Origin: a virus
Taxonomy: Duplodnaviria; Caudoviricetes
Length of the DNA stretch: 64,000 nt
Strand: one strand, 5' to 3'
IMG/VR virus record: IMGVR_UViG_3300035703_000078
Span: 4,288 to 68,287 of that record
How positions within the stretch are numbered: position 1 is the stretch's first letter; every line of letters starts with the position of its first letter. This document shows positions 7,822-63,653 of this stretch, piece after piece. A model generated the notes under the pieces. The model saw only the letters and a program-made list of their open reading frames with translations, did no database searches and was not told where the DNA came from. A program made the translations under genes and the position numbers.

Positions 7822-8390
7822 GAAAGACAGTCTACAGGTTTCCCCATAGACTGCCTAGTAACCCTATTAGCTTGCTCTAGGCCAGGGTGGGTTAGGTCCT
7901 TAGCCTAGGTTATTACTACCCCTTATTTACTTTATATCGGGGTCAGCCTACTATAGTAGGGTAACAGTTTGAACAAGCGGTCAGGACTGTTCACTTTACC
8001 TGACGTAGCCTACCCAGCTTTGTGGGACTGTTAGTAAACCAAGACGCTACAGTTTGTTGCGCAACAAAACCGTAGCCGCACTATGCCTAATTTCTATTTA
8101 TACTCGCATAGTCGAGTAATCTAATATATGCCTTAGTATAAACCTTAGATTAGCGGGTTTATACTTATGATCCTGTCTAGTTGGATCCCAGGCGTATTAC
8201 CACAGGGTAGACAACTCCCAGGGCGTTTACTGGATAGGTTGCGGCCTACCCAGTATCCTATTGCGGTCTACCGTCTACCGTCTGCAACGGCTCCGCCAAT
8301 GAGTTTGTGAGTAGTTTCTAGTCATGCTCAGGACTACGAGTCGGGCAACCCGCATGCTGTCCTCTAGGACTATCCGGTTGCTTGCCCCGT
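7822..8390 (-). ncRNA. putative structured ncRNA or array of pseudoknots
   Basis: About 570 nt without an ORF of 60 aa or more; at least four complementary loop-tail pairs forming H-type pseudoknots plus hairpins; ends in a terminator-like hairpin. Confidence 0.55.
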
Positions 8391-8394
8391 TGTG

Positions 8395-8727
8395 TCATCG
8401 GTGTTGGCCGTAGTAGGCCTGTTCCTCCTGGCGGTAACACCTACACAGCTGATCAAGTTCTTCTACCCGCTTTTCGAGCTTCCTGATCTTTTCTGTAATC
8501 CCCACTGAACTGATGGGGAACTGCTTGACCTTTAGATACTGCTTGGAGGATCTAAAGGTCATCCCAAGGTCGTTGTTGTGGTCAATGACCACCTGCTCTC
8601 CGGGCTCAAAATACCGGTCGAACACAAACAACTTAAGTAGTTCCTCTCCCGAGAGTCCCTTTTCAACTACCAAGTACGGTCTAAGGGGAGCATCAGAATA
8701 CTCCCCAATTTCGATTAGAACTAACAT
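8395..8727 (-). CDS. hypothetical protein with C-terminal coiled coil
   Basis: AAGGGG SD; 110-aa ORF. Confidence 0.7.
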   Translation of the reverse strand: MLVLIEIGEYSDAPLRPYLVVEKGLSGEELLKLFVFDRYFEPGEQVVIDHNNDLGMTFRSSKQYLKVKQFPISSVGITEKIRKLEKRVEELDQLCRCYRQEEQAYYGQHR

Positions 8728-8742
8728 TTTATTCCCCTTTGA

Positions 8743-8922
8743 TCAGTGCGGATACCCAAACTTGCGAAGACAAGTGAGAACCAACGCCATGATTACTGGC
8801 ATTGCCACCAAGCAAGTGGGAATGACAAGAAACGGTTCGTTTGTCACAGCAAGGGTGACAAGAAGGAACCCCGTCAAGAATGCCGATAAGTACGCTATCG
8901 GCCAGCACACCTGGTACTTCAT
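8743..8922 (-). CDS. small two-TM membrane protein, 59 aa
   Basis: GAGG SD; MKYQVCWPIAYLSAFLTGFLLVTLAVTNEPFLVIPTCLVAMPVIMALVLTCLRKFGYPH. Confidence 0.6.
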   Translation of the reverse strand: MKYQVCWPIAYLSAFLTGFLLVTLAVTNEPFLVIPTCLVAMPVIMALVLTCLRKFGYPH

Positions 8923-8944
8923 TTTTGACCTCTCTTTGGAAAGA

Positions 8945-9190
8945 AATGAGGTTTTAACTAGGTTATCCTCTACCTAGGCCAATAATCCAAACCGTAAGTA
9001 CTTGCCTGTGACATAGGCTTTCCGTAGCTGTATTCCCTGCAAGGCAATACAGCGGTTATTATGTGTGTCCCCCTATTTATATACCGCCTAGGGGAGGTTG
9101 CTTGCGGTTCTATGGTGGTTGCAGCCACCGTTATACCCCGTTTGGGGTATTAGAAATCGCCACCCGTAGGTTTCCCCAGGGGTGGGAGGA
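8945..9190 (-). ncRNA. second structured non-coding block (hairpins plus two pseudoknots)
   Basis: Stem/loop-tail complementarity at 8948-8977 and 9068-9108; hairpins at 9027-9053, 9113-9129 and 9133-9150. Confidence 0.4.
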
Positions 9191-9197
9191 TCTGGAT

Positions 9198-9464
9198 TTA
9201 CTGTCCCAGTTCAGCCAGTTGGTTCTGGATTACCGTCGCCTTGGCCACAGCTGCGGAGATTGTGGCCTCCGTAGCCTTGGGATTCAAGATGACTCCTCCA
9301 ACCAAGCCGTTGAGCTTGAGCTTGAGCCTGTCCTGTTCCGACAGGGCCTCGCGCCGGGCTTGGCGAGCTTCCGCCTTGGCGAAGTGCTCGCTCACGTTGG
9401 TGGTGATTCCGAGGGAAGCCAGAGCTTCCTGTCGGCTCTTCAACTCTGCATCAGACAAAGGCAT
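9198..9464 (-). CDS. hypothetical helical protein, 88 aa
   Basis: AAGGAGG SD before ATG 9464 (MPLSDAELK); first gene after the N4-like hairpin. Confidence 0.75.
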   Translation of the reverse strand: MPLSDAELKSRQEALASLGITTNVSEHFAKAEARQARREALSEQDRLKLKLNGLVGGVILNPKATEATISAAVAKATVIQNQLAELGQ

Positions 9465-9549
9465 GAATGCCTCCTTGTATTGGGGATGGTTAGGGGTATG
9501 CAACAAGCACAACCAAAGCCAACCCCGACAATGAAAACTTCCGTTTTCA

Positions 9550-9569
9550 CCCACGACACACGAAGTGTG
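9550..9569 (-). promoter_or_regulatory. N4 vRNAP-type hairpin promoter candidate
   Basis: Template (+) strand reads CC-ACGA-CACAC-GAA-GTGTG: CC, 4-nt spacer, 5-bp stem, C(GAA)G triloop. Confidence 0.5.
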
Positions 9570-9594
9570 GCGCGAGCTTTAGGGTATTCGTGGG

Positions 9595-9860
9595 AAAAAA
9601 GCAGGTACACCCAGGTTCATGGGTAAATTTCGGTAAATCCCATTAGAAGCCAGGTAGATTTGGGGCTACCGCAGGGCCTTTTAGGTATTCCGTGGCTTCC
9701 TAGGGCATCCTAGGCCCCTTAGCGTAGGCCCAGGTACTCAGGCTACCCACCATCTAGGTACAAACCGTAGGCCCCCTACTGTAGAACTAGTTAACATCTA
9801 GGTACTACTTGGGGTACTGGTAGGTACGGATGGGTAGGTACAGGTTACCAGGGGGTAATA
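9595..9860. repeat. non-coding tract of short AGGTAC/TAGG repeats
   Basis: Multiple (C/T)AGGTA(C) and TAGGCCC units, strand-skewed, no ORF. Confidence 0.5.
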
Positions 9861-9866
9861 ATAACC

Positions 9867-9900
9867 AAATAGAAAACCCCCCAGGTATTACCTAGGGGGT
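9867..9900 (-). terminator. intrinsic terminator (CCTAGG family)
   Basis: CCCCCCAGGT-ATT-ACCTAGGGGG stem; TTTTCTATTT follows on the minus strand. Confidence 0.75.
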
Positions 9901-9915
9901 AGGGAGAACGGAACA

Positions 9916-10440
9916 TCAGACCAGAACAGTGAATTCTGGCATGCGATGACCGTTCTTGGAGGGAACGATGCGGTGAGCCGGGTACTCCAGTTCCACGGCA
10001 CGCTTGTTCCATGCCGCTGACCAGTAGGCTTCTGCTTCTGCGGGAGTCTGACCCCATTCTCGCAGGCAGGCAGTCAGGTTCCGTTCCCGGCACGGAGCCA
10101 GAAAGAACCTCGACCGAAGCACCAACCTGCCTTCGGCCATCCAGGGAGGAGTGGACCCGCTAGGGTCACGGCTGATGGTAACCCCATTGCTGAGGTACAC
10201 CCAACCGTCCAGATCCGCTCCGTAGCGGGTCTGCATCTCCTGGTGGATCTTGACACCGAACCCCATCTGGATAATGTCCAGGTGGGTGAACTTCGTGCGG
10301 TGTCCACGCACGTCCACGCGCCAGCTGGTGGAGTTGGTCCACACCCGATAGGCGTGTTCCCCCGTGCTGAAGAACATGGGGGCGGAACCCTTGGTAGGGA
10401 CGAACTCGACTGAGCCAAGCACAAACTGTGAAGTTGTCAT
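9916..10440 (-). CDS. hypothetical early protein, 174 aa
   Basis: GGAG SD before ATG 10440 (MTTSQF); GC-rich codon usage. Confidence 0.75.
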   Translation of the reverse strand: MTTSQFVLGSVEFVPTKGSAPMFFSTGEHAYRVWTNSTSWRVDVRGHRTKFTHLDIIQMGFGVKIHQEMQTRYGADLDGWVYLSNGVTISRDPSGSTPPWMAEGRLVLRSRFFLAPCRERNLTACLREWGQTPAEAEAYWSAAWNKRAVELEYPAHRIVPSKNGHRMPEFTVLV

Positions 10441-10497
10441 ATGACATCTCCATATACTAGGTTTAAGGTTATTGGGATACAAACCTAGATAAACTTT

Positions 10498-10536
10498 CCC
10501 ATAAGAAATCCCCCCTAGGGATTACCTAGGGGGGAA
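10498..10536 (-). terminator. intrinsic terminator (CCTAGG family) after the mini-RNAP gene
   Basis: TCCCCCCTAGG-GATTA-CCTAGGGGGGA stem, then TTTCTTATGGG. Confidence 0.8.
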
Positions 10537-10549
10537 GTTGCGGGTAGTA

Positions 10550-12427
10550 TCAGCGGAAGATGTTCTTGGCAGCAGAAACAAACTGCTCTTCCGTCACGTC
10601 CTCAGTGATGTTGGGGAACAACTTTCCCAACTCTTCCTGAAGGACCTGACGGTAGTTGCCAACACACTCGCGGTACATATGACGAGTGTACACTTCCTGC
10701 ACCGTCCTCAAGGCTGGACCAATGCGAACAGTGATCGCATCGTGCCGCGTGGTCGCCACCTGTCCATCCATCTCGTTGATGGTGTTAGTCAGGACATTGC
10801 CATCCTGACAAGTGGTAACTGCAACCAAGGACCCGTTCGGGGTATCAACCCGATTGGGTTCTCCGCTGTCTGACCACGGCACAACAGGCCCGTTGTCATC
10901 AGTGAAGCCCTTGGTGAACGGAGCCATACGCGGCTGGAAGCGCGTAGGCCATCCGTTCTTCTTGCACAGATCCAGCACCGAATGAGGCAGGGACACGGAG
11001 ATCTGAGGCAGATCCCGCATCTTGGTAGCCTCATCAACCGGGAACCATGAGAGCGCGGGTGCGATCTTGAAGTGAGGGAACGTAATCCCACCGTAGGTGT
11101 ATGAGAACACCTCCTCCTTCGCCTTCTGGTGAGCCAACCACAGGTCACCAAACTTGAACAGCTTGCTGTCGTAGCGAAGGGCCGCGTTCACCGACATGGC
11201 AGAAACAGATGCTGCCAGTTCCTTGATCTTGGACTGGGGCCAGTCCTTGATCAGCTCCAGACCAGAGCGGAGCTTGTCAACCTTGATCACAGCATTTGCA
11301 AGGTTGAACGGAGCGAGGACAGAACCATCCTCGTCCTCCAGCTCTCCGCCCATCCCGTAGAGGAACACCTGGCCCAACACACGCCCGGTGTAGTTCGTCA
11401 CGGTAAGGACATTCTTAGCCCACTCGCGTGAACGAACAAACGACTCAACCTCTGACGGCACGATGCCAAGGCACTCCGTAATGCCTTCGTAGACCTTCCG
11501 ACCCATCATAACATCCCGACAGGTGCGGCTCCCACCGATGGCCAAGGAGGTAGCCACCGGACCCTGTGCATGGGCATCATATCCAATATGCCCATGAGAC
11601 ACGCCGGAAGCAACAGCGTCACTGATGTGGTAGCAGTTTTGGATGAACCGCAGCACGTTACGCTTCTTGCTTCCAACTGACTTCAGCTTGCCGATTGGGT
11701 TGGAAAACAAACCCAGAGCAAACTCGCGGTCAGTTGCCACGCGGAACATCTCTTCCCGCGTGACACCGTACTCCTTCTCGACCAGGGTAGACCACAGCTC
11801 AATGTCTTCCTTGGTGACAGGGTTGCCTTCTGCTAGCTGATAGAGAGCGCACACATCTCCATCGTACATCGTGGGCAGAACCAGACCGTCGCGGTTGTAC
11901 GCATAGAAGCGACCGCCACGACGATCTGACGAGTGCCAGAACTTGATCTCGCTTCCCGAAGGAAGCTTGGCCAGGTTCTCGATCTGCCACTTGGCAAGGT
12001 ACTCCATCAGGAACACAGGTTCAATCACGGTGTTTGAACGACCGTTGTGAACCACCTCATAGGGCTTCTTGCCCAGCAGACAGGCAGCATCAATGGCCAG
12101 GTTGAACATGCGCTCATCGCGCACCCAGGTAACCTTGTCCATTGCGGCCATGCCACTTGCGTGGCTAGACCAGCTGCGACACTCAGGCATGAGCTTCAGG
12201 ATGTCCTCAGCCTGCCGCCGAAGCGTCCAAGCCTTGAACACCTGAGATCCACCGCGAACAACCTCGCAGTGCATCTTGTAAGCTCCCGTTGACAGCATCT
12301 TACCAATGATGCCGCCAACAACTGAGAACGATGCCGGGTCGATCCCCGCAAGGACCGCATCCGGCTGAATGAGTGTCACCAGGTCGTGAACAGTGTACTC
12401 ACCCTTACCCAAGAATGGAATGTTCAT
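10550..12427 (-). CDS. divergent, N-terminally truncated T7-family RNA polymerase (625 aa)
   Basis: D168-RRGGRFY, motif A GYD284AHAQG, motif B R334EWAK338NVLTVTNY346, TTCQDGNVL, motif C RH562D563AIT, all in T7 order; GAGG SD. Confidence 0.85.
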   Translation of the reverse strand: MNIPFLGKGEYTVHDLVTLIQPDAVLAGIDPASFSVVGGIIGKMLSTGAYKMHCEVVRGGSQVFKAWTLRRQAEDILKLMPECRSWSSHASGMAAMDKVTWVRDERMFNLAIDAACLLGKKPYEVVHNGRSNTVIEPVFLMEYLAKWQIENLAKLPSGSEIKFWHSSDRRGGRFYAYNRDGLVLPTMYDGDVCALYQLAEGNPVTKEDIELWSTLVEKEYGVTREEMFRVATDREFALGLFSNPIGKLKSVGSKKRNVLRFIQNCYHISDAVASGVSHGHIGYDAHAQGPVATSLAIGGSRTCRDVMMGRKVYEGITECLGIVPSEVESFVRSREWAKNVLTVTNYTGRVLGQVFLYGMGGELEDEDGSVLAPFNLANAVIKVDKLRSGLELIKDWPQSKIKELAASVSAMSVNAALRYDSKLFKFGDLWLAHQKAKEEVFSYTYGGITFPHFKIAPALSWFPVDEATKMRDLPQISVSLPHSVLDLCKKNGWPTRFQPRMAPFTKGFTDDNGPVVPWSDSGEPNRVDTPNGSLVAVTTCQDGNVLTNTINEMDGQVATTRHDAITVRIGPALRTVQEVYTRHMYRECVGNYRQVLQEELGKLFPNITEDVTEEQFVSAAKNIFR

Positions 12428-12481
12428 TGGGTGGTTTCCTCTCTATAAGAAGGAGTTAGGGCTTGACTTATATAGCTCTAG

Positions 12482-12515
12482 CCATGAGCTTGCCCAACAG
12501 TTGGGCTTGGGTTAC
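12482..12515 (-). promoter_or_regulatory. hairpin promoter-like element upstream of the mini-RNAP gene
   Basis: CCATGAGCTT-GCCCAA-CAG-TTGGGC-TTGGGTTA aligns without gaps to 13020-13052. Confidence 0.45.
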
Positions 12516-12520
12516 ATTTA

Positions 12521-12560
12521 ACCCATAAAGAAATCCCCCTAGGTTTTATCCTAGGGGGAA
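12521..12560 (-). terminator. 40-bp terminator repeat, copy 1
   Basis: ACCCATAAAGAAATCCCCCTAGGTTTTATCCTAGGGGGAA, identical to 13269-13308. Confidence 0.85.
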
Positions 12561-12579
12561 AGAGGAGGATTCAATCGCC

Positions 12580-12993
12580 TTAAATCTCGTTAAAGATTCG
12601 GCGATAATTGCCAGTACCTCCGCCGGTGTCGTAGAGCGTAACGCTCCAAACCTCTTCGTAGGTTGGGGCACGCTGACCCAGGTAGTCGCAAATCAAGGAA
12701 TTTCCGTTAACCGACCTAAACTCAAATCGCGACATTGTGCCACGCTTGTAGTAAAGGACATTGTGAAGCCAGTCAACAGAGTTCTCTTGATTGTAGGACT
12801 CAAGAAGAGCGGGAACTTCTTCCGTCAAGGGACCTTCCACGCCAGGACGCGGGAAAACTTCGCGTCCGCCAAATGAGGAAAAGGAGACAGGACACAAACA
12901 TTCTGTTCCCTTAGTGTCCCAAATCTGGTCGGTAAATGCATGCCCAATAGCACACACCGCCTCCCAGCGAACAAGCTTGGTGCTGATCTTCAT
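12580..12993 (-). CDS. hypothetical early protein
   Basis: AGAAAGGT SD lies within the upstream 50-bp repeat. Confidence 0.75.
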   Translation of the reverse strand: MKISTKLVRWEAVCAIGHAFTDQIWDTKGTECLCPVSFSSFGGREVFPRPGVEGPLTEEVPALLESYNQENSVDWLHNVLYYKRGTMSRFEFRSVNGNSLICDYLGQRAPTYEEVWSVTLYDTGGGTGNYRRIFNEI

Positions 12994-12999
12994 ACCACT

Positions 13000-13057
13000 A
13001 ACCTTTCTGGTCCATAGGACCTAGAGTTCACTGAGCCCCAGTGATAGGGTTAGGTAG
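13000..13057 (-). repeat. 50-bp promoter/RBS repeat, copy 2
   Basis: 13000-13049 identical to 13568-13617; contains hairpins GGTCC-ATA-GGACC and TCACTG-AGCCC-CAGTGA plus the SD. Confidence 0.9.
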
Positions 13058-13065
13058 TAAGTCTA

Positions 13066-13101
13066 CCCATAAAAAAATCCCCCAGGGATTAACCTGGGGG
13101 A
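13066..13101 (-). terminator. intrinsic terminator (CCTAGG-family variant)
   Basis: TCCCCCAGG-GATTAA-CCTGGGGGA stem, then a T7 run and ATGGG on the minus strand. Confidence 0.8.
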
Positions 13102-13106
13102 CTTGG

Positions 13107-13244
13107 TCACCACGGGTTGCCAATGATGGCCAGGGGCTGATGCTCTTTAATGAGCTTAGCCTTTGCTGCATCTTGGCTATTCGCCGTGATGGTCACAGTA
13201 ACTTCGTTACCGTGACGATCCACAATCCTGAAGTTATACTTCAT
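13107..13244 (-). CDS. small early protein, 45 aa
   Basis: AAAGGAG SD; MKYNFRIVDRHGNEVTVTITANSQDAAKAKLIKEHQPLAIIGNPW. Confidence 0.7.
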   Translation of the reverse strand: MKYNFRIVDRHGNEVTVTITANSQDAAKAKLIKEHQPLAIIGNPW

Positions 13245-13268
13245 GTGGAATCTCCTTTCTGGGTATAT

Positions 13269-13308
13269 ACCCATAAAGAAATCCCCCTAGGTTTTATCCT
13301 AGGGGGAA
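13269..13308 (-). terminator. 40-bp terminator repeat, copy 2
   Basis: Identical to 12521-12560. Confidence 0.85.
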
Positions 13309-13321
13309 TGTGGTTCAGTAC

Positions 13322-13561
13322 TCAGCTGTTGTTCTTAACAACTGTCAGAGTGACTGAAAGGTCATCCTCGCTACGCCACGCATAAGCAACAAGGACGCCG
13401 TCACCAAGCTCATTGCACTCCCACAGCTCCCAGTTGCGATCCGAACAGGTGTATGCTGCGTTAAACAGCCACTGAAGAGCTTCGTACCAGTTCTTTGTCT
13501 TGAGCGGGCGGTATTCCCACTCCTGTCCGTGGATGTAAGTGAATCGAGTTTGATTTGCCAC
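13322..13561 (-). CDS. hypothetical early protein (probable first gene)
   Basis: GTG start with AGAAAGGT SD in repeat copy 1. Confidence 0.7.
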   Translation of the reverse strand: MANQTRFTYIHGQEWEYRPLKTKNWYEALQWLFNAAYTCSDRNWELWECNELGDGVLVAYAWRSEDDLSVTLTVVKNNS

Positions 13562-13567
13562 AGTACA

Positions 13568-13625
13568 AACCTTTCTGGTCCATAGGACCTAGAGTTCACT
13601 GAGCCCCAGTGATAGGGATAGGTAG
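13568..13625 (-). repeat. 50-bp promoter/RBS repeat, copy 1
   Basis: Identical to 13000-13049, plus shared TAGGTAG. Confidence 0.9.
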
Positions 13626-13639
13626 GGAATCTACCTGGG

Positions 13640-13675
13640 AAAAAAACAACCAGAGAATTATTAGTTCTCTGGTTG
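13640..13675 (-). terminator. intrinsic terminator between late and early regions
   Basis: CAACCAGAGAA...TTCTCTGGTTG stem followed by a T run on the minus strand. Confidence 0.8.
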
Positions 13676-13764
13676 CTTTGTTTGATTGGGGGGGGGATAG
13701 AGGGGGATATCCACCCTCTAATTCCTTACATAACCCCTCAGAAATTTCTGACCCCTAAGTCGAT

Positions 13765-16700
13765 TTACTTCAGTGAGTCTGGAGCTTTAATTGGTGTTGT
13801 TGCTTCTTTTTGTAGAGATGAACTTGTGCTTGGCTTAGGTCCAACCATGACTTCGCTGGTAGAGGTTGTTTCTACTGGCTTCTCTGGTACTGGAGTTTCT
13901 GGAGCTGTTAGACCTAGGTTTGGCATTTGTTTCTTTTTAAACTGATGCATGTATTGCTGAAGTTTATTATTCATTTCAGTTTGATACAATGACTTAAGTA
14001 TAGCCTGTGCTATATTGTTTGGCGTAGGTAGTTGCATGTTTTCGTATTCAGCATAAGCTGTAGCAAATGCTGTATTCATTGGTCTACCTTCGCTATTGCG
14101 TCTTCCAGAATCAAAGGAACCCATTGTTTGTTTCTTTGCTTCTGTAGCTAGGCCCTGATTAATTAAAGTTTTAAACCAAGCTTGATTTAGAATTGGTAGT
14201 AAATATAATCCACCATTGTAAGCTGACTTAATTCTTTCTTCATCTGACTGTGCATTGATAAAGGTATTGGTATTGGTTGCTAGGTTCTTTAGTAATCGTA
14301 CCATAGCAGTAACACCTAGCGGTGCAATCTCTGGTTCTAATCCCTTGTTACCAGCAACTGTATCTGCCAAGAACAAGGAAGTATCCAACAAGAAGTTGCC
14401 CTGTAAAGTAAACATGGGGTTTCTTACTGCTGCTTTAGCAATAAGTTTAATTGTCTTTTCAGATGGTTCACCCCTTAGTAATCTTTCAATTTCGTCCCCA
14501 GCAAGGAACCCGCTGGCTGCTGCAAGCATAGTTTGATACATGATATCGGTAATGGTGTATACCAACATGAGTCCAGCCATCTTTGATGTAGACATTCTGG
14601 CACTGTTTCGTAGTAACATCTGACCAGCAAATAGAATTGAATATGATCTATACAAGCTTAAGAACTTGCTTAATGGGGAGTCATCTGTTACACCATCAAA
14701 AGCTGAAGAAGATATTAATGACTGTTTAACTGCCAAGTCTTGGAACTTTTCAATAGCTCCTACAGCTTGTATTAGCATTTGTTTATTTACGGTAACACCA
14801 TCTACATTAACGCTAAAGTCTTTATCAAGATCTAGGATTTTGTCCATATACTGAGAAATACTAATTGGTCCTGATTGCTTTAAGAACTTAAGGCTTTCGA
14901 TAACCCCAACCTCAAACATACCAGCAGCTTTCATTCGTAGGATTGTTTCAGGTGAAGATAGCTTTCTAAAACCGTTGTTCTTTAGCTTCTTCATCAGAGT
15001 TACATATCCTCTATAGTTACCAGATTCCAATTCACCATCAATAAGCATACGTCTTACTTCTTCTAGGTTGTTAGTATTTAGTTGTCTATTGAGTTGTACT
15101 AATGCAGTTTTAGCCAAAGCTGTTCTTGCAGAGATAGATGTTGACATATTTAGTGCTTGGTTAAAGCTTAAGAATCTACTAGCCAGTCTTCCGGTTTTTC
15201 TAGTAAAGTCTACTTCACCATATAACTTTTCCCATGACTCAACAAAGTTACTGTTAGTATCCCAGAGTATTTCTGCAAAGTCGGCAAAGTCACCACGAAC
15301 CTGGGTTTGTTTCCATCCATCACTAAATGCACCAAAGCTTAATCTAAGTACATCTCCAATGTATCTGCCATAGAAACCAAGTACACCACCAGCACCGCCC
15401 AGCATCATAGCACCAACAGCTGCTGCTGAAGAGTCTACAAGAATACCAGCGGCAATCTGGTTACCACCCCAGATTAGGTGGGCAGCTTGTGTTGTAAACT
15501 TAATTGCATTCTTACCAATGGCATCACCAGATACGGCAGAACGCATGTTCCACATATACTGATACTTGTGCTCCAATACTGTTAAGGCATCACTAAGTAA
15601 CTTGACTTCTGCTTGTGATAGGGGTTTAGCTCTTACGCCTTGTTCGGTTCTTTCAAACTGACCCTGTGATATATGAGATCCAGTTGGTCTATTGGCTCCA
15701 TCAACATATGCCTTTAGAATCCTAATTAGTTTAAGAACATCATACCCCTGTACCCCAGTCATCTTGTAAATCAATGAACTTGATACAGCTTGCTGACCTA
15801 GGCCAGATCCAATTGATTTAATAATAGATCTTATGTCTCTGGAGAAGCCACTACGGATAGATCTCATTTCTTCTACGCCTAGTACTTCAGTAAAGTTATC
15901 ACCAAAGATATCATCTACTGTTAGGTTAATGTCATCCTTATAAGTAATAGCAGCAGAAGAACCAATAGTATTTAAGAAGTCTATTGCTAGTAGTTCTGGA
16001 ATTGTATTTGTAGATGCACTAAAGATATTTCTTTCTTCTTTGATCTTAATTGGGAATCTCTCAGAACGCATAGCTTGAAGCTTTGCTTTCATATTAGGTG
16101 GATTGCCAATATCAGAAGTAATGGTATTCTTTATTGCATTCTGGATTATCTTTACCTGTTCTGGGGTAATACCGGAAGAATGGGCTGTAAGCAATCCAGT
16201 TACAGTAGCTGTTCTACTGGTGCTTGCTTCTAGTAAAGCCTTGTAGCCTTTCTTTAAATCTTTCAATGCAACCGAGTTTCCAACAGTTGCACCCGATCTA
16301 ATCAGATCCTTTTTAGTTGCTAGATCAACAGATCCTTCTTTAACTTGAGCAGCATAAGAAAGAATAGAGTTAAATATAATAGCCTCTACTGAATTTGGAT
16401 TAGTAGATCCACTTGCGTTTCTTTCAATAAAACTAATAAACTCTTGTTCTGAAGACATGTCTGATGAGTTAGATGTCTTAAGTGTTGGTAACCCGGAAGT
16501 CAACATAAATGTAACCGGATGTACTCTATCAAGATCTTGTAACTGTGAAAGTTGTTTTGCTCTGATTAAAGAAGATACAGATTGAATAAACTGCGTTCTT
16601 CTTGTTTGATAACCAGCTTTATTCTTTTCTTCTCTAAACTGATCAATATCTAACTTAAATGCAAGGTAGCTATCATGGAATGGTCTTGATCTATCTTTTA

Positions 16701-19700
16701 GATTAGCATCTGTAATTATTCCATGTAATAGTTCTGAAGACTTACGATATGTATCTCCAAGTCTACGGATAGCAGCTTGTTCCTTTTCATTGAATGAAGG
16801 ATCAATCTTACCGCTGGCTAGGTAACTAAATGACTCTAGGATAATATCTCCAGATCTATTAGTTGCGCCTGGTACTGGGATTGCTGAAGAAAACTCTGAA
16901 ACAATTTGGTTATAAACAGAAGATACTTGATTAACCAATAGATTTACTTGGTATTGGTTTTGTTTAATACCATCCAATCCACCGTTACCTTCAAAGTATG
17001 AATCTACTGTTTGTGCTTCGGCATCAATTAAGTGCGCTAATGATACAATAATACCAAAGGCAGAGTTATAGGTTTGGCCAGATTGATTACCAGTTACAAG
17101 ATAAACAGAAGTAGAAATCTTCTGTAGTGTTTGGATTAATCTATTTCTTGCATGTCCATCGTCTTGCATAGACACAGTGCCTGAGAATAGATTCATCATT
17201 TGTCTAGCTAGATAAGCAGCTGTACCTGGGCTATCGACACGCTTGCCACGAATTTCTGACAGCCTTCTAATAATATGATCTGCCAGTACAATCTCTTCTT
17301 CTGTTGTTTCTGCATAATCAAACTCACGACCTACAACATCATTTCTGTTGCGTAGCCTAGTTAATGTATCATAGTATAGTTCATCAGAGATACCTAAGTG
17401 GTCTACATTGTTCTGCCACTTATCTCTAATAGAGTCTAGTTCTCGTTTAACTCTAGCATATTCTGCCGAGTTTGGATCCAGTGTACTAAGCTCTTGAGTT
17501 AATCTTCTGTACTGATTCTGATTTCTTTCTTGCTCTTCAAGATAAGTAGTACGCTCAGCCAATGTTGAACCGGGATTATAATATACATCCGCATTTGAGA
17601 TAATAAAACTTTCTTCAAGTACATCATCATATACAGCTTTGTCTTCCATTCTAAGATCTGAAGTAGCATCAAAGAATCCGTTAAAGACTCTGTTTACTTT
17701 GTCGGATACACCAACAAATCTACTACCAGTCATTTCATCTAAGAATGTAACTAGATTATTTACAAAGTATTCAATGGATTTAAAGGTTCTCTTCCACCAA
17801 GAATTAACCTTACTAGCTATATTGTTTTCTTCCTCTATAGTCTTTAGCTCAACACGATCTTTACCCATTGCTCTTGTAATAAGCATTTGGCTTCCCCACA
17901 TAACCAAAGCTTCTTCCAAGTTTTGTTGATAGTAAGAAACTAGTTTAGTGATTTCATTTCTAGTTAGCACCCCACCAGCAAAAGCATTAGTAACCATTTT
18001 TTCTATTGCTTCTTGCCCGGTGTCTGTCATTAAGCTTTCAATTGCTTCTTCATAACCAATCCTATCTCTAATCTTAGAATAGTTTAAAGCAATATGAGAT
18101 AGCTCATGTGCTATTACTTCAATAGCTTGTTCAGTTGTTTTGCCAGCAACTGCTGCTTTAATTGTATCTGGAGACTTGGCAAAGACAATATTAAATACAT
18201 CGTTAACCTTACGGATTTTAGCTAATCTATTTCCTTCAACACTATCTATGCTAATAGTCAAGTGACCTTCAAGTTCTGGATGCTTATGTAAAATAAATCC
18301 AACCATAGCTCTATACATCTGTTCTGTCAATGCATCCAACCCTAAAGACTTAATTTGATTATTTAATTGTTCACCTGAATTTACAAATGTAGACAAGAAT
18401 ATTGTTTCATTGCCAAACTTATTGGCTGATTCTTTTGGTCCAGTTCCATAGAATGAAAGACTTAATTGAGAATCTTCTTTTAAGTTTTTAATAGAGTGAG
18501 AAACAGCTAGTCTAACTTTATTCTGTTGTTCTGCATTTAGTTTTTTACCTTTTTCTTCCTGATTAGCAATAAACCGAACAGTAGCATCTAGTTCATTTAG
18601 TTGATCAGTTGGAATATCTAACTGCTGTAAGAAAGCTCTAACTGGTGTATAAAACTCATTAGACTGTGGATCTGTAATGCTTCTAACTACATTTAGAATA
18701 ATTTGGATATCACTAGTTAAAGCATCAACCTTAGCTTTTGAAATACCCTCTCTACTAAACGTGTAATCAACAAGAGCTCTAATAGCATTGAGTTCCATTG
18801 TTGGCTTTGATATAGCCAATGAAATAATTGGAAGTAGTTGTCTAATCTCTTGAGCATTATTATTTAAAGTACTGTTAATAGTATTTAAAGCAGACTTAAG
18901 ATTGTTATTTTCAGCAATTGCTATAGCTCTTTGAAGTGGCATAAGCAAAGCTAGTTCATATGCTTTTACAGTAAATGGTGTAGATCGACTATCTAAATAC
19001 TTAGTAGAAATTAGATTAAAGTTTTCTTTAGCTAAGTATCTAATAGAGTCTAAGATTTCATACTGAACATTATATCGAGCATCATACATACCACCATCTA
19101 AAGTATACAGTGGAGATAGTCCAGCATGAAGAGCCGAGAAAACTGTAGCTTCATCGGCTTTTAATTCTCTAGCCCCATTGTAATATTCTAATGTTCTTTG
19201 CAGATTGCCACGCTCTAGGTTTGATTTCTTTTGACCAATTGATTTATTAGTAGCATAAGCAAGTTCAGCCTGGTTTAGTATAACAGAGTTTCGTAGCGCA
19301 AGTAACAATGAGTTTAACATTTCTGGTGTGAACGCATACTTTGTTTTACTATCATTAACATTTACTTGTGGAACTGGACCAATGGCTGTTTGAATATCCA
19401 TTGTATTAGGTGTTGGTGTATCTACAACAAGTTCAGCTGTATTTTGATACTCATTATAAAGTACATATAGTCCTACGGATCTTATGTCAGCTTCTGTAAA
19501 CTCTGGTCTACTTAGAATTTCTGGTAGCAATGTAACTGCTGCGTTTGCTGGAATTGATTCCGGTATTACCTGACCAGCAGGATCAAACTCGACACCAGCA
19601 ATATTTCTAGCCTTGACAAGTTCAGTGGCTACTTGTTTTACTTTTGTTAGGTTGTAAAGAATAAATACAAGGTTAACAGCATCCATAGCTTGTACGGTTA

Positions 19701-22700
19701 CTGGTAGTGTTCTTGTGTTTTCGTCAATAGGTTGCGAGTCGGGTCCTGCTACTCTAGTTCTTGATGAAACAGTAAGACCATACTTAAGACTTCCTAATTG
19801 TTCTGATGCATCAGACAACATTGTAAGAAGGTTGTAATATGTGGGACTTCCACGCATGCCCTTAAACATCTTTGGATTAAACCCACCAAAGTAATTAAAG
19901 TCTAGCTGTGTTACATCCTTATCCATTGTATTGTGTTGATACTCAATGATATCAAACATGGATGTTAAGAACTTTGATACACCTAAGTTATATTCAGATA
20001 CTAAAGTATTTTCATCTGCATTATAAACCTTACCAAGTTTTCTTAGTAGTGGGTAACCACCTCGGACATGAGCCATTCTAATGAAATGAACAGCAGCCCA
20101 GTTTTCTCTACCTCGCGGTAAGAGATGCATTAATCCATTTTGCTTTGCAAACCTATAAAGTCTGCTTTGAATTCTAGCTTGCTCAACGGCAAGTTTAGTT
20201 GATACATCTGTTAGATTAGTAAGTAAACCCAGTGACATAAGTTCTCTTGGAACATATGGTAAAGATTCTGGGTTTACTGTATGAGTGTAACCTATAGCTT
20301 GTTCTGGAATAATATCTGTTACAGAACTTGGTGCTTTATTCTTCTTACTTGCCCTTACCCAGTTTTCATTTTCTTTATCAATACGGCGTTCAATAGCCAA
20401 TTCTGCTAAAGCGTAAATAGGTAGATCTGTAATATCAATATCGGCAGTCTTGGGTCTAAATGCAAATATACCCATCTTTTGATTAGACTCTTCAAATGCT
20501 TTACTGGTATCCCCAATAACTCGGGATGGAGAAGCAAGGTATCTTAATCCCTGCTCTAGTAGCAAGCCGCGCTTACGGGCTTCTTTAATCCAGTTCTTGG
20601 CGTTAGGTCTTGCACCACCGGGTGTAACAACGGATTCAATCTGAGCCTCTGCCTGGGCTGTTCTTAGGGTTTCTATACTACGCCGTCTGGCATAGAATTC
20701 TCTTTCCTTTTTACTAATGCGCGACCAATCTTCTAGGAATCTTTCAGGTGTCTCTAAAGTTTTATCATTATAGTCATTAGCCATATACTCAGTAGCCAAC
20801 CGTAATTCATATTGCTGTAGGACTAATTGAGTAATGTATCTACGGGCTTCTTCTGGATTTTCTCTTGCTAGTCTAGCAAAAGAAAACTCGTCAATTTCCC
20901 ATAAAGCTGTAGTGTTTACATCGGCTGGATCAAAAGGAGCTGGGGTAGCAACTTGAGAATAAGAAGGACCCTGGTATGAAATACCAGATGGTGTTGTGTA
21001 CATACGACCACCAGCCAAGTCTCTGGCTAAACTCTGGAAGAAAAGATAGTTCCCAGAATTACCAAGATAGTCATTTACATTAACACCAAACTCTTCTGTA
21101 GCTTCTCTAATAGCTTCTTCTCTAATCCTAAGTGGTGTTCTATTAGCAGTGTTTATAGCAGCCAATAGCGGTAAGTCTTTCCAAGCCTGGGGATCTCTAC
21201 CCATAATCTCAGCTAGCTTAATATATTCTCCACGGGTTGTAAGAGTACCACCCTTAGTTCTTACATACTCTCGACCCGCGTTAATTCGGTCAGCCCACAA
21301 TTTAGCAAGACGTTGTTTCTTATTATTAATAGCTGACTCTAAAGATCCAAACTGCATAATATCACTAGGTTTTACCAACATTCTTGCAGCTGCATCAATA
21401 CGAAGATTGATAAGATTAGTTAGTGTTGTATCATCAATGATACCGCGACCAAACTCTGTAGATCTTCCCATTTCTTCAAGAACTGCATGATGTCTTTGTA
21501 TACCATCTTTGTAGAAAAGTTTTTTGTTCCACTCATCTAGTTGTTGTTTTAGTTTAGTTCTACCTTCGACCGAAATATTTATTGTTTCGTCTATTAACTT
21601 AATTAATCCAATAACGCCGCTAAACTCAGCATCCTTTAACAAAAAATTAATATCAGCATTGTTAATAACAATAGATGGGAATGTTTCTTTAAACTCTGGA
21701 TCTTGAGTTTTTTCAAATAGAGCTTGTGAAATACTAGGAATACCGCCCTGATACAAACGAGGTAATACAGCAGCTTTAAAGAAATCTCTAAAGGTTCTCT
21801 TAGATCCTGTTTCATCCATGCTGTTTAAAATAGCATTCCACTTTTCTAATGAATCAAACTTAGCTTGTTCATCTTTAGTTAGCGGTGCTGTTTGTTTTCT
21901 TTCAGATAGTTTAACATACTGCTCTGCAATATTCTTTTGGACTTGAAGAGATACTTGAGTATAAAAGTCATCCTTGTTAGCATCTACAGTTGACCACCAT
22001 TCAGAAAGATTTAGATTTTTTATAAGGTTTGCTACACCTCTAGTACCTACGTCGTTTGGAATATTGTAAGCCAACATTAACATTAACATGTGGTGAATAC
22101 CGTTAAAGTCAAAGTCAAAGTAATCTATATTCTTTAATTGCAGTTTACCAGCTTGAATACCCTTAGCTGTTTCTTCAAGTGATGTTTGAATAGCACCATC
22201 AGTAATACCATATGTTTGATACCAACCCAACTGAGCTACAAGTTGACCGTTGATAATTGATCGTGCAGACCAAGCACCAGGTGATGCTTCTAGTCTGGAG
22301 AATTTTAAACTCTTACCATCATTATCTACAACTACTTTTGTTCTTAAGAATACAGAGTCATGCACTACAGCAACACCAATTGCTGGTAAGTCTAGTAAGG
22401 TTTCTAGAGTTCTATCTAGTGTATCTTCAATTGTTGGAAGCTCATTAAATAACTGTCTGTTATTTACCGTAGGGGTAATATCGGGAATTATTGTTGTTGA
22501 CTTAGCTAATACAGAAACTCTACGCATATACTCAGCCCCACGAATGTCGGCTAGTTTCTTTCGTAGTTCTTCTTCTGACAATCCTTTGTATCTATCACCG
22601 TTTAGAATATGGTTTATTCTTTGCCGTAAAGCCCAGTCATTGTATACTTCTTCATATTGCTTAAGAGATATTGGAGCAAACATAGATACATTTTTTCTAT

Positions 22701-25700
22701 GTGGTTGTCTAACTTTTATAGACTCAGATAGATTCTTTGCATTGTTTTCCAGGTCATTCATTGTAGATAGTGGAGTAACAAATGCTTGCTCTTCAATAAA
22801 TCTAGAATCCATAATACCATCTCGCCTACCCATTGCAATCTGAGCTATAGCATATCCTACATTCCAAGCAGGAGCATAATCAGTATTACCATTACCAAAG
22901 TCTGTTATAGCTTTTGCTTTAACTGATGGCAAGATTACTTCGTTAATAAAAGCTTTAATGTAGTCTGCTTGGGTTTCTGATCCAGTCTTTTCTCTAAATC
23001 CATACTCAACAATCTTTTCATTCATTCGAGAAACTATCTGATCGGCTGGTACTTTATCCCCTGCCATATCTAAGTAGAACTGATTAAATGCTTCAATTAC
23101 TGCTGCTTCATACTGAGACTCAGCTGTTGTACTGGTAGTTGCTTCAATATATTTTGGTTCGCCTTCAATGATTGAAAGAATAAACTTTGGTTCTCCATCA
23201 GAACCAAGTAAAGCTTTCTTTGCTTCAATACCAGCTTGTCTATGTGTTCTCATTAACTTCATCTGAGTAACAAGAACTTCTTGTTCTTTTTTAGTAAGTC
23301 TTTCGGCTTCTTTAATTAAAGTTTCTCCAACTACAGCTGTATCTGGATCTGCTCTTAAAGATAAAGACATATGCAATAGCAACTGATCTCTAACTGCCTC
23401 TGTATTAAATAGCAGTCTAGATGTTCTTTCAGCATTATTAGATTCACCAACAAAGTTATTTATTGCTGGTTGTACTCCAGGTGCATTGTACTCTGAAAAA
23501 AATCCATTAAAGTTACTATTTGTGTTACTGTGGAAAATAGCAAGTTGCCACGTTTGAAGTGGATTACTTAAACTTAAATTTACAGTACTCTTATCTACAT
23601 TGTTTACATTAACAGTAAGATTTCGTGATGGGTTTGATTTTAGGTTTTCAATAATCTCAAATACCAAATCAGAGTCGTTTCTAGAATACTCTAGTGCCTT
23701 TAAAGTTTCTTCTTCTGTTTTTGCTGCAAGTAAAAGATCTACTACACTTGTGCCAGTTACGCCTTTAATCTTTCCTCGACCAAGTGTTGCTGTTGCAAGG
23801 TTGTCTAAATTAACAGTAGCTCCATATTGCATCTTAATCCAAGCGTACATATCGTATGATCTTAAAGCAACCCGAGCGGCTAGATTTGATGATTCTTCTG
23901 TACCGATAGATTTAGCAATACGAGCTAAATCAAATCCAACATTATTAAATCCAGCAACCTTCCATCCCATATTTTGCATTAATTCTAAAGAGCGTAAGAA
24001 TCGCAGTAGATCTTCTTTTGAATAAGCAGTAAAGTTACCAATAGAACCCTTAGCTGGATTTGAAACAAGCTGTTCAATAGAAGGATCAAGTCTTTCTTCT
24101 GTTGCTGAGTGTCTAATAGAAATCATAAAGATCTCATCACCCCTTGTTTCAATATCAAATGAAATAACTCTATCCCAGTTTCTTGCGTACTCATCTGGGT
24201 TTGCTACTTCAGGTAAACCCTTAATTGCCCTTGGATCCATACCTAAATTAGCAAAAGCTTTTTCTAATGCTGGCGGTACAGGTAAGCTAGATAAAGCCGG
24301 AGCTGTTAGTCGTGCTACAGATGTTGCAGTTACAACAGCACTACTAAAATAGATGTCTGGATTTAGTAGGTGTAACTGTGGTCCTAGGGCTGCTAAAACC
24401 ATATCTCTTGACATGTGCTCTGAGAACTGTGGTAGTTTTCTCAGTGTTTCTACACGCTCTAAGGCTTGCTTTAACATTACATAAAGCTTCTTAAAATCAG
24501 TGCCTTCTTTAAACTCTTTAATCTTTTGTTCTCTAGTACTAAGAGTTTCTTCCTTAGCTTTGCTGGCTGTTCTAGCCTTTGGCATAACAGTATCGTTATT
24601 TACCTGGTCTTCGTTTTCAATATCCATGTTATTGCTAGCTGCTTTTAGATTATCTGCTAACATTTGATCTTCTGGTGAAAACTCAAAACCTAAAGCAATG
24701 CCATTTGAAAAAGCCTGATCTATTGCTAGATTAGCTAATGTATTAAAGATAGAAGATAGTGTATTGTTATCTAGTTCAGTGCTTCCCTTTAAGGACTTTG
24801 CTTTTTCTTTTGGATTAACTTTATTGTGGGTATCAATAATTAATTGATCAATAGAAACACCCAAGTCTCCAATTACTGCTTTTAGTTCTGCTACAGTAAC
24901 TTTGCCGCCCTTTTCTTTTCTAATAGCATCCAACAAAGCCTTACTTGTATTAAGCACCTGAATACCCTGTTTGGCTAATTCAAACAATTGCTTATCATGT
25001 TCTAGGGTATTACGAGAATCAATTAGTTCATTTAGAGCAAGGCGGTATGTAGATGAGTTTTTATCAATCTCAGAACTAAGTTCTTTAACTGCTTCATATA
25101 GAGATATTTGACCAGCTGAGTCTGCTTTCTGTTGCTTTCTAAATGCCTTACTTAATAAGATTTCATTTGTTTTTGTGGTAGTTTCTTTGACATTCTCATC
25201 AATCTTTTTTTGAATTTCTTTTTTCTTTTCTGGGTCTGTTTCTCTTTGAAGCTCACCAACTAAAGCAAATCTAGTATTGTTTAGTTGTTTAATTGTCTCA
25301 TTGTTTGAAGCCTCAAATTCATAAGACGCATTAACAGCATTAAGTAAAGCTTTAGTTTTTTCTAGTCTACCTTCAAACTCTATGTTCCTAATAAATCTAC
25401 CAGCATTTCTATTCTGATTTTCGGTTGCTTCTATTTTTCTAATTAATCTATTAAGTGTTCTTGCTTCTTTAATTTTACCTTCACTAAGGAACTTACTCTC
25501 TAGCTTTCTTAGTTTTTTCTTTAGTTCTAGAGTTTCCTTTGTTTTGAATCCCTCGGCAATAAGTACTTTACCTTCCATATAAGCTTGCCACTTAGACCAT
25601 AAAAAAGTAAATTCAGACAGATCATCATTAGTAACTTTAGTTATATCACCCCTAGCTCTTCTAAACTTTGAAATTAGTTTATTAAGCTTATCAATATCTG

Positions 25701-28640: not shown

Positions 28641-31600
28641 TTATTACTGTCTCCCTTAAAGTGAATCCAAGGATGGCCATAATTAGGATGGCCACGTTCG
28701 TGGATAAAGTTTTCTCTAATGAAATCAAGTTGTCTTTGCATATTCTTTAATTGAATTTGGCTAGCAAAAGAACCAGTTAGTTCTACAGGAAACATACTAG
28801 GATCAAAAGCAATTCTATAACTTACCGGAAATGGTGTTCCATCCTCTGTTGAAACTAGTTGTGTAACTTTAGCATCTTTACCAAAGTTAATTTTAAATGT
28901 TGATGTATCTCTGTTTGATGCAACATCACTAAATATGCCATTACCTACAGCAAATAAATCATCTGGTAGTATTTTAAACCCACTACCTAAAATATCATTA
29001 GCAGTCATTAAAACCATAGCATTTGTTTTTGATCTTGCATCTGAACCACCAGCAAGTCTACTAGCGGAATCATTAATTTTAGCTATAGTTGACGGATCAA
29101 GTTTCTGGCCATTTAAAGCTGAAGTAATAATTTTTGTTAGATCTTCTTTAAAAGCGTCTTCACTTAATCTATTTTTAGAGCGTTCTCCAAATAACCAGAT
29201 AGTAGCATAAGTAGATTCCTTACCGCGCATGCCCGGAATATAACGTTCATCATCAAAAAGAGGATTATCTTTTCTGTCTTCTTCAATAGTATTAGATTCA
29301 GTAAAAGAACCAGGAACGGCTTGAATTGAATCTGGAACAGCCAGCATAGGCATTCTATATTTTTCGTGCTCTGCTGGAATAATTATATTACCTGCTTCCG
29401 CTACCATTGCCGGGTCTGTTCCCCAGTTTAAAGTCTTCCAAGAACCAACCTCATAACTTCTATAGTTTGGAATTACGATATTTCCCCTACTACTACCAAA
29501 GAAAGAATCATAGTCTTGCCAAGTTGATAGGACTTCTACTAGGTTTGTGCTGTTTGGTTCAACGGTACGATGAGCTTCTAAGAAACTAGTAAAGTCCCTA
29601 TTAGTAGAAAGAGATCCTGTTAAGGTTTCTACAATAAATCCAAAGTTATCATTTGTTAGTTCTACTAAACTTAGATTTCTACTATCATCATAAGTTGTCA
29701 TATACAACGATACAATACCATCTTTATTAACATCAACAGGCATACCAGAAGCATTAGCTAATGCTACTACAATAGCTGTTTGTTTTTCTGTTTCTGAATT
29801 ACCTGGAATTTTCCATCCAGATTGTTCCCAATATCCCAAAACAGCATTGCCATCATCTCGTATACTAATAGATGCTTCATCGTTTATAAGTGTTCTAACA
29901 TTAAATGGAGCTAACAAACCAGCAGTAGTAATAAAATCTTGCGTACCCGACCCTCCCCATGAAGTTGATTGTGGTAGCTTGGTAAGATCCATTCCCTTAC
30001 CTCTTATGTTATCTTCCGTATGAAGCATTAAAGATTTAAATAAATATTTAGCTACTTTATCAAGCCTGCTTTGTTCTGCTGTCATTTTATCTGTTAAAGT
30101 TTTTTTAGCTGTACCAGTTAATCTAGCAAATGTATCGTTTGGATTACTAGGAATAAATCTAATACCATTTGTTTTACCAAACTCTGGATTGTCAGCTAAC
30201 TTAAGTTCTACTAGTTTTCTAAGAGTTGGTCTATATGAACTTAAATCAGATCCTACTAAAAGTTGATTAATTCTAGTTTGTACTCTTTGTAACATAACAT
30301 AAGGATCACCTTTAGACTCAATAGTAGCTTTTGCTGCAATGCCATCTGCAACCGCAAATAAATACATCATCTCTTGTTTTGCTGTTTCCATTGTTAATTG
30401 AGCGTTACCATTATTAGAACCCAAGGCTGTAAATGCTTTTCGTAATGTTGGTAAAAACTGTGAATTGCTATCAGATGTTCCACTAGTTACTCTATACACA
30501 AGTCTTGCATAATTTTCTGTATTTGTATTACCTGCTCCATCAACTAATTGAATTGTTGCAACATCGTTATCACCCATGATAGGCGATAAAAAGGGTTCTT
30601 TTGGACTTATGTTACTTGATCTAAATAAAGCAGCATACTCATCTTGAGTTCTTAATATAGTCTCTACCACTTGCCTTAATGCAGCTTGCTGTGATGCTAA
30701 CTCTTCTGGTTTGTTTCCTACTATAGACGGATTGTTAGAAGCCTCCATTAATACCATTTCTTGAACAGCCAAAGTATTGAGTTCAGCCCTAATATCATTT
30801 AGTTTAGCTCTGTATGCAATTGGAGATTCTTTTAATAAGGCATCTAATTCTTTTTGCCTCATATCCGCTATTTCTTTTAGTCTTTCAGTTAGTTGTTTTG
30901 GTAAAGGAATTCCACCAACTCCTTGAGGTATTTCAAAACTATACTGATTATTACCTATTGTTTTACCATAAGTAAATCTACTAGCAGCTTCTACGGTTCT
31001 TTGTGCAATTGAAGCTAAAGCAGGATTATCATGTACAAGCTTAAATACAACTCCCGATCTTTCAGGAAAATTATTGGCTGCTGTAGTTAAATCTCTAAAA
31101 TGATTTTTTTCAAACACACCAGAAAAAGTAGGTCCTCCCGTTTTTGCTACAGCCCTTACAACACTATCTATTGTTTCATTTATTTTTTTATTTAAACTCT
31201 GAGTTAGCTTATCACCTTTAGATACAGAGTCTGATATAGCTTTCATTTCTTCTGTTAAAGAAGGAAGTTTTCCGTACTTAGCAATGACAGCATTCATTTC
31301 TGGTGTTCTAGCAACACCATCGGTATTAGCTGCAATAAATAGTTCATAGTCTTCTGGAGGTAATCCTAAACCAAGTGTCCAGATTTGCAATCCATTTTCA
31401 CCCCGTAGTCTATTGCTTGTATTACTAGATCGCAAAGCTTCTAGTCTTAAGAATGCTGGAGAATTGCCACTCATACCAAGTTGTTTAACCGTAGCATCTA
31501 AAGCAACAGCTAAACCATAGGCTGATTGAGGACCTTCAATTTGCAATGTTTCAAATGGAGCAGTAGCAGCAGTTAGTTGTTCGGAAACACCCTTTGCAAA

Positions 31601-63568: not shown

Positions 63569-63570
63569 GA

Positions 63571-63652: not shown

Positions 63653-63653
63653 G

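Follow-up and report, generated by a model that had tools for sequence, protein, structure and literature searches.

Hairpin promoters have been described, in the literature searched, only for N4-like phages. According to one account (PMC4496689), phage N4 has three of them, and the positions that its virion RNA polymerase (vRNAP) contacts or that shape the loop are -9C, -10G, a central purine and -12A, with -8G in the stem being read by the specificity loop. In the N4 genome record, the non-template strand of promoter P1 consists of a 5-bp arm, TTC, a second 5-bp arm, 4 nt and GG. P2 has the same layout with TCC as its loop, and the template strands carry the loops GAA (P1) and GGA (P2) together with a template CC. 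N4, a coliphage of the Schitoviridae, injects its giant vRNAP, for which P1 and P2 are early promoters; hairpins of this type have stems of 5-7 bp and 3-nt loops on the template strand, head several early operons and need supercoiling and SSB to be extruded. For the Pseudomonas phage LUZ7, a report (PMC9163698) describes the early and RNAPII promoters as hairpins with loops of 3-4 nt and G starts 13-15 nt downstream, with nine early (vRNAP) and four middle (RNAPII) start sites mapped experimentally.

Two further systems bear on the locus described here. Phage T7 has promoters just inside both genome ends, of which phiOL and phiOR adjoin terminal repeats and arrays of short repeats. The T7 RNA polymerase binds its duplex promoters through an N-terminal domain, and hairpins have been worked on at the T7 concatemer junction. 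The mitochondrial light-strand origin is a stem-loop at which a T7-like mitochondrial RNA polymerase makes a primer.

The DNA analysed here, termed the window, is a 64,000-base stretch of an uncultured virus record that totals 68,287 bases and has end repeats of 112 bp. It encodes a T7-like gene set consisting of an 812-aa single-subunit RNA polymerase (PF00940), a primase-helicase, a DNA polymerase, an exonuclease and a T7-type large terminase, with a structural part of portal, scaffold, capsid, nozzle and tail fibre. The large genes are all located on the minus (-) strand. No relatives among cultured phages were found by DNA comparison, and the 812-aa polymerase is at most 28% identical to its counterparts in cultured phages. 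Judged by its sequence, the phage is T7-like and distant from cultured phages. Three adjoining tRNA genes (Lys-TTT, Leu-TAA and Arg-TCT) are situated at 63496-63727 on the minus strand.

Downstream of the terminase are genes of 1452, 918 and 4035 aa, followed by an island of approximately 6 kb (8000-13700) with 49-56% G+C, against about 37% for the genome, and without a DNA match. The island is organized on the minus strand into short cassettes, and five of these are closed by strong, similar terminators. It is also present in the related locus L002 and evolves far faster than the core genes. A direct repeat of 92 nt, 86% identical between its copies (12997-13088 and 13565-13656), lies upstream of two small island genes and may be a shared regulatory region. 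The sequence AACCTAGTATAT occurs in three intergenic copies on the minus strand (10463, 7408 and 3180) and is found in L002 and L015 too; these copies may be a promoter of another class. De novo motif search of the intergenic DNA returned terminators and tRNA T-arms, and nothing else.

Within the island, 6.5 kb upstream of the T7-like RNA polymerase gene, a position like that of the early regions of T7-like phages, a small hairpin follows the gene of a second, much smaller polymerase. The elements of this locus are listed below in the direction of the minus strand.

10550 to 12427, minus strand: gene of the 625-aa "mini-RNAP", predicted to have the fold of a single-subunit RNA polymerase but to lack the T7 N-terminal domain; candidate reader of the hairpin
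9876 to 9900, minus strand: strong intrinsic terminator with an 11-bp stem and then a T run, one of the five similar ones in the island
9609 to 9875, minus strand: TACC/GTACC short-repeat array, between the upstream terminator and the box
9591 to 9608, minus strand: conserved box GTACCTGCTTTTTTCCCA, which precedes the hairpin by a varying 21-40 nt
9554 to 9572, plus strand: extended stem-loop, with an outer 2-bp helix (9554-9555/9571-9572) beyond a 1x1 mismatch of A9556 opposite G9570
9557 to 9569, plus (template) strand: inner hairpin, with arms 9557-9561 and 9565-9569, loop GAA at 9562-9564 and closing pair C9561:G9565
9550 to 9552, minus strand: candidate transcription start (G on the RNA), at 9552 by the N4 ruler and at 9551-9550 by the LUZ7 spacing of 13-14 nt
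9532 to 9549, minus strand (RNA sense): second hairpin, with a 7-bp stem and the loop GGAA (GNRA type)
9198 to 9464, minus strand: first downstream gene, 88 aa, with ATG at 9464-9462, 88 nt past 9552, and AAGGAGG at 9476-9470

The plus strand at 9550-9569 reads CCCACGACACACGAAGTGTG. The string that an earlier note had reported for this strand is indeed present, its 19 nt beginning at 9551, and the N4 promoter geometry which that note had given agrees with P1 and P2 in the N4 genome record. A spacer of 4 nt (9553-9556) separates the stem from a template C at 9552, which by the N4 ruler is 11 nt from the loop centre at 9563. With template C at 9552-9550, the sequence is compatible with a G-start at N4 spacing. 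An invariant block, GGTGAAA (9551-9545, minus strand), begins 12 nt past the loop centre. The hairpin lies on the template of the coding strand, preceded by a terminator and followed by a gene whose ribosome-binding site is strong.

The likeness to N4 P1 and P2 extends to the template-strand hairpin itself, the 5-bp stem, the C:G closure, the loop of G-purine-A, the 4-nt spacer and CC at +1/+2. The loop is GAA, as in P1, and the GCGAAGC heptamer of P1 is shared with a group of four relatives (L006, L007, L013 and L019). A GAA loop closed by C:G is a stable DNA mini-hairpin motif (PMC13037366). N4 has three such promoters, whereas a single copy per genome is found here rather than several copies in early operons, and position -8 is A in the window instead of G. 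The hairpin here has a conserved 1x1 mismatch and an outer helix, and two lineages carry large loop inserts. Moreover, the phage is T7-like, and a vRNAP homologue was not detected by sequence methods.

By the published description of its promoters, LUZ7 shares with the locus a stem of at least 4-6 bp, a loop of 3-4 nt and a downstream G start, which in the locus is a candidate; there are many mapped sites in LUZ7 and one candidate site here. T7 resembles the locus in that the phage-polymerase promoters phiOL and phiOR adjoin terminal repeats and short-repeat arrays, and phiOR (39229) is followed just before the right end by a small gene (19.5), as the hairpin is by the 88-aa gene. The T7 promoters, however, follow a 23-bp double-stranded consensus in many copies, in contrast to the single-copy covarying dyad seen here. 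The mitochondrial light-strand origin is also a DNA stem-loop present in one copy, and it serves a single-subunit polymerase, as the hairpin would, but initiation there takes place in the loop of exposed single-stranded DNA.

Other element classes fit the hairpin poorly. It is missing from the terminator scan, and its stem is followed by TCGTGGGTG. It is single-copy, unlike a T7-type consensus of approximately 23 bp before many genes, and the repeated AACCTAGTATAT is unrelated to it. A T7 class II pause signal was considered and rejected, since ATCTG is confined to a single lineage. The idea of a primase site, GTGTC, was dropped as well; this sequence is common by chance and lies inside the paired stem.

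Taken by itself, the occurrence of the hairpin is not significant. The genome contains 84 hairpins per strand with a 5-bp stem and a 3-nt loop. C(GNA)G hairpins number exactly one per strand, with the minus-strand copy located at 13210, inside an ORF. In 300 dinucleotide shuffles, the expectation for C(GNA)G hairpins is 0.34 per strand, with at least one in 29% of shuffles, and it falls to 0.067 per strand when a C is required after the 4-nt spacer. The folding energy is unremarkable at -6.4 kcal/mol (z -1.3). The genome-wide count therefore places the pattern, with its one copy per genome, at background frequency (0.34 expected per strand).

It is the relatives that set the hairpin apart. A search with the 625-aa protein family yielded 4 viral and 11 metagenomic loci, of which L011 duplicates L005, leaving 14 loci examined. 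One copy of the hairpin block is found downstream of the 625-aa gene in 11 of the 14, at a distance of 0.12-1.1 kb, and the contigs of the other three (L008, L009 and L010) end short of its expected place. The block is therefore present in every related contig that reaches that place (11/11). When the viral collection was scanned for the pattern, the block turned up only in the two contigs already known. A covariance model run over the window and 15 loci (182,020 bases) revealed no second site, the sole extra match scoring 10 bits (E 5); L016 scored 31.9 bits and L015 gave a partial match.

The alignments comprise 9 sequences, of which 7 have a 3-nt loop. Every stem cell in these 7 is paired (49/49), the 7 rows representing only three lineages. 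Two pairs vary on both sides, namely an inner pair (AT, CG or GC) and an outer pair (CG versus GC). The covariation score is 0.354, compared with 0.085 in shuffles, none of the 500 shuffles reaching 0.354, and sliding the alignment reduced the paired cells to 25-61%. A third compensated pair, T-A, occurs in L015 at the loop-closing position. No G-T pairs were seen in the stem cells of the alignments. The 5′ arm has the form CAC-N-C/T, with a complementary 3′ arm. The loop TTC (template GAA) and the sequence GTGAAA are invariant in all 9 sequences, while the G preceding GTGAAA is kept in 8 of 9 and replaced by T in L002. DNA folds of all five lineages contain the 1x1 mismatch and an outer helix of 2-5 bp.

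In N4 numbering, -9C, -10G, the central purine and -12A are present in all 7 sequences with a 3-nt loop, and the sole variable inner pair is -8/-14. The base at -8 is A in the window, C in L002 and L012, and G only in the group of L006, L007, L013 and L019, whose template heptamer is GCGAAGC. In two of the five lineages, the 3-nt loop is replaced by inserts between the arms, 24 nt long in L016 and 63 nt in L015. A strict N4-type promoter would not tolerate such inserts. The arm-splitting inserts (L016 10560-10600 and L015 4320-4395) are homologous, and that of L016 carries the mini-hairpin heptamer, GCTTCGC on the coding strand.

Conservation, which the earlier note had proposed to look for, was thus found, with compensatory changes and in a fixed gene context, and on this comparison of sequences the hairpin is conserved beyond chance once the relatives are included. 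The note's reading of the site as an N4-type promoter holds in part: the geometry and the conservation speak for it, whereas the copy number, the giant protein considered as its polymerase (see below) and the 24- and 63-nt inserts in two lineages do not.

The surroundings of the hairpin are conserved to varying degrees. The window, L002, L012 and L016 have identical copies of the upstream box, of which L015 and the L006/L007/L013/L019 group retain a part. The short-repeat array was counted by motif, Tandem Repeats Finder having given no detection. It holds 14 TACC in the 281 nt scanned (9595-9875), or 49.8 per kb, including 7 GTACC. This is a 15-fold enrichment over the 3.3 per kb of the window, with 7.7 per kb in the GC-rich island. 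The counterpart in L002 contains 13 TACC. The terminator at 9876-9900 closes the cassette of the small polymerase gene and a 188-aa gene.

On the downstream side, the transcript start forecast by the earlier note, GGG followed by TGAAAAC-GGAA-GTTTTCA, is recovered as the complement running leftwards from 9552. In this transcript, 3 nt would separate the second hairpin (9549-9532) from the 5′ end. L002 and L012 retain this hairpin with the loop GCAA and with both arms lengthened by a compensated 1-nt insertion; the other lineages lack it. The distance of about 88 nt to a gene with a strong Shine-Dalgarno sequence was also borne out. A small protein gene follows the hairpin in the lineages examined. 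The 88-aa protein is weakly conserved, with 6 of 8 relatives' ORFs aligning at 18-49% identity to that of the window, and the ORFs picked for L015 and L019 in this comparison were off-frame or wrong. A pattern search for relatives of the small downstream gene found none.

Past the 88-aa gene, a stretch of about 40 nt on the minus strand (9150-9190; TCCTCCCACCCCTGGGG.AACCTACGGGTGGCGATTTCTA) differs by one base among the window, L002 and L016, a degree of conservation that appears to exceed the needs of a plain terminator. Further on, in a long non-coding stretch 1.4 kb downstream of the hairpin and on the same strand, lies a Pistol ribozyme (RF02679; 8065-8117, minus strand; 43 bits against a gathering score of 34.5). 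Pistol matches of 40.5-65.2 bits are found in L007 (10838-10904), L013 (10987-11051), L016 (11857-11909) and L002 (9480-9557). In the L007 lineage, the ribozyme begins 34 nt past the probable terminal-repeat boundary.

The 625-aa protein is rare, with 9 matches among 1.84 billion representative proteins. In an 8-member alignment, a DSRGGR-type motif, D284, K338...Y346 and RHD561-563 are invariant and follow T7-like order and spacing, and the conserved aspartates are likely to be catalytic. The AF2 model has a pLDDT of 76.7. Foldseek matched this model to POLRMT (E 8e-10), T7 RNAP (4e-9) and N4 mini-vRNAP (5e-7), with a probability of 1.00 at E 1e-9. VIA gave Z scores of 15-16 to T7 RNAP residues ~264-883 and 13.8 to N4 RNAPII. 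The best structural matches are mitochondrial RNA polymerases. On the strength of this model, the protein is a single-subunit RNA polymerase that lacks the N-terminal domain of T7 RNAP, given that the structural matches start at approximately T7 residue 264. In this it resembles the RNAPII of LUZ7, which PMC9163698 presents as heterodimeric, small, T7-like and without the N-terminal domain. LUZ7 is a known case in which hairpin promoters are used by a small polymerase of the T7 type.

The polymerase and the hairpin appear to be inherited together. The 625-aa polymerase is 31-64% identical between lineages, while the T7-like RNA polymerase of the same phages is 83-90% identical. There are five polymerase lineages, each with its own stem variant. 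L016 is a mosaic in which the polymerase, the hairpin and the first gene differ from those of the window, while the DNA past the first gene is ~97% identical. Therefore, the hairpin goes with the polymerase and not with the downstream DNA. Mere linkage could yield the same correlation between lineage and variant.

A different protein had been put forward in the earlier note for tests of an N4-like polymerase, the giant product of one of three genes between the terminase and the island.

28637 to 32995, minus strand: 1452-aa protein, 0 cysteines
25884 to 28640, minus strand: 918-aa protein, 1 cysteine
13765 to 25872, minus strand: giant protein of 4035 aa, 1 cysteine

A scarcity of cysteines has been noted for ejected N4-like polymerases (PMC3715699). 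As they have 0-1 cysteines, the composition of the 4035-, 918- and 1452-aa proteins suggests that they are ejected. The polymerase assignment of the giant protein found no backing. It has no match in Pfam, PHROGs or PDB (phmmer), and profile search of PDB gave only E values of 0.66-2.2, to the exonuclease part of family-B DNA polymerases. In hhalign, the probability was 0.4% against the small polymerase family and did not exceed 1% against the DNA polymerase and the T7-like RNA polymerase that the phage itself encodes. An AF2 model of residues 541-1260, built on a 3-sequence alignment, has a pLDDT of 38.7. The N-terminal half reached DNA_pol_A protein-atlas clusters at 0.76, below the level that counts, and the C-terminal half resembles polyvalent-protein clusters (LPD39, LPD38 and LPD1). 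By eye, exonuclease-like FDIET, NNVGFD and YSRND (residues ~573-735) and VVHDS at residue 1169 can be seen. The polymerase that is linked with the hairpin is the 625-aa "mini-RNAP", with its T7/mitochondrial RNA polymerase fold.

The 625-aa polymerase has 10 cysteines, like cytoplasmic enzymes, as opposed to the 0-1 of ejected proteins. It is thus probably made in the cell and not injected, and in that case something else must transcribe its gene first.

The best explanation, held tentatively and at a little under even confidence, is that the hairpin is a promoter read by a single-subunit polymerase of the phage, probably the 625-aa one. Under negative supercoiling, or while the DNA is transiently single-stranded, the plus (template) strand would extrude the 5-bp stem, closed by C:G, with its very stable GAA loop. 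The stem-loop would then be bound by a single-subunit RNA polymerase of the phage, and synthesis would begin with G at 9552-9550, at a distance of 11-13 nt from the centre of the loop. The resulting transcript would carry the GNRA hairpin close to its 5′ end, the 88-aa gene and the non-coding stretch beyond. The likeliest reader would be the 625-aa polymerase, encoded 1 kb upstream, because it is without the duplex-promoter domain and is inherited with the hairpin. Several observations count against a promoter of the N4 type: the single copy, the loop inserts, A at -8, the background frequency of the pattern and the unremarkable folding energy.

An alternative, unlikely on balance, is that the hairpin acts as an RNA structure in the 5′ leader of the 88-aa mRNA, in stability, processing or regulation, with transcription starting further upstream, for example near the box at 9591-9608. 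Stem-loops at 5′ ends are known to stabilize mRNA. Preserved helices combined with loop lengths between 3 and 63 nt are typical of RNA, and in RNA sense the loops of the adjoining hairpin are of the GNRA type. There is also a conserved box upstream, and the Pistol ribozyme 1.4 kb downstream indicates that non-coding RNA of the same strand matters. However, UUC is not a particularly stable loop in RNA; on the complementary strand, GAA closed by C:G corresponds to the stable mini-hairpin motif of DNA (PMC13037366), and template GAA is the loop of an N4 promoter. No stem cell contains a G-U pair, and Rfam has no match at the hairpin. As for a start near the box, its distance to the hairpin varies (21-40 nt), and the sigma-70 scan of 9470-9900 found no site.

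The position of the hairpin raises another alternative, improbable to a similar degree, in which it is a DNA element of the genome end or of replication, that is, a structure-specific site for terminase, nuclease or primer synthesis beside the terminal repeat. The ends of relatives' contigs cluster nearby. Between the two ends of G002 there is an imperfect overlap of ~273 bp, located 470-745 nt downstream; the contig of L018 stops at most 18 nt from the G002 end, that of L019 an estimated 80-90 nt before it, and that of L014 near the G002 start. Upstream of the hairpin, L009 ends at 64 nt and G004 at ~140 nt. Because of this clustering, the physical genome ends are probably near the hairpin. 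The single copy per genome, the place directly after a short-repeat array and the comparable placement of T7 phiOR (39229) and the concatemer junction, with gene 19.5 just before the right end, also suit an end element. On the other hand, the window's own 112-bp end repeat lies away from the hairpin, and this reading would leave unexplained why the geometry fits that of a promoter and why there is a G-start block. The alternative overlaps the promoter reading in part, since initiation by a polymerase at this site could serve the priming or processing of DNA.

That the site is a palindromic operator for a dimeric DNA-binding protein is very improbable. The 13-bp perfect dyad stands in a regulatory region, and half-sites would change together, as the arms do. 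Nevertheless, in L016 and L015 the arms are separated by 24 and 63 nt, respectively, and the invariant loop, with the conserved 1x1 mismatch flanked by an outer helix, favours a folded strand over a duplex site. A chance hairpin without function, in favour of which stand the expectation of 0.34 strict patterns per strand and the energy z-score of -1.3, is scarcely credible, being already contradicted by compensatory changes across lineages in which the flanking protein is only 31-36% identical.

If the hairpin is a promoter, as is tentatively favoured here, hairpin-based transcription start would have arisen or spread beyond N4-like phages, and the locus would offer a compact system in which to study start-site recognition by a polymerase devoid of the N-terminal domain. 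A broader proposal, which is possible but commands less confidence than the promoter role, is that the 625-aa polymerase, which is below all characterised ones in size and is missing the N-terminal domain for promoter binding, makes up with its own single-copy hairpin promoter a co-inherited, fast-evolving cassette at the genome end, the specificity of which would be reset via -8/-14. The five polymerase lineages with their five stem variants would then be candidate orthogonal expression pairs. The locus also raises the question of how infection starts in a T7-like phage with nearly cysteine-free giant ejection proteins (0-1 cysteine). If true, the proposal would establish hairpin-promoter transcription outside the N4 family and provide natural orthogonal pairs of polymerase and promoter.
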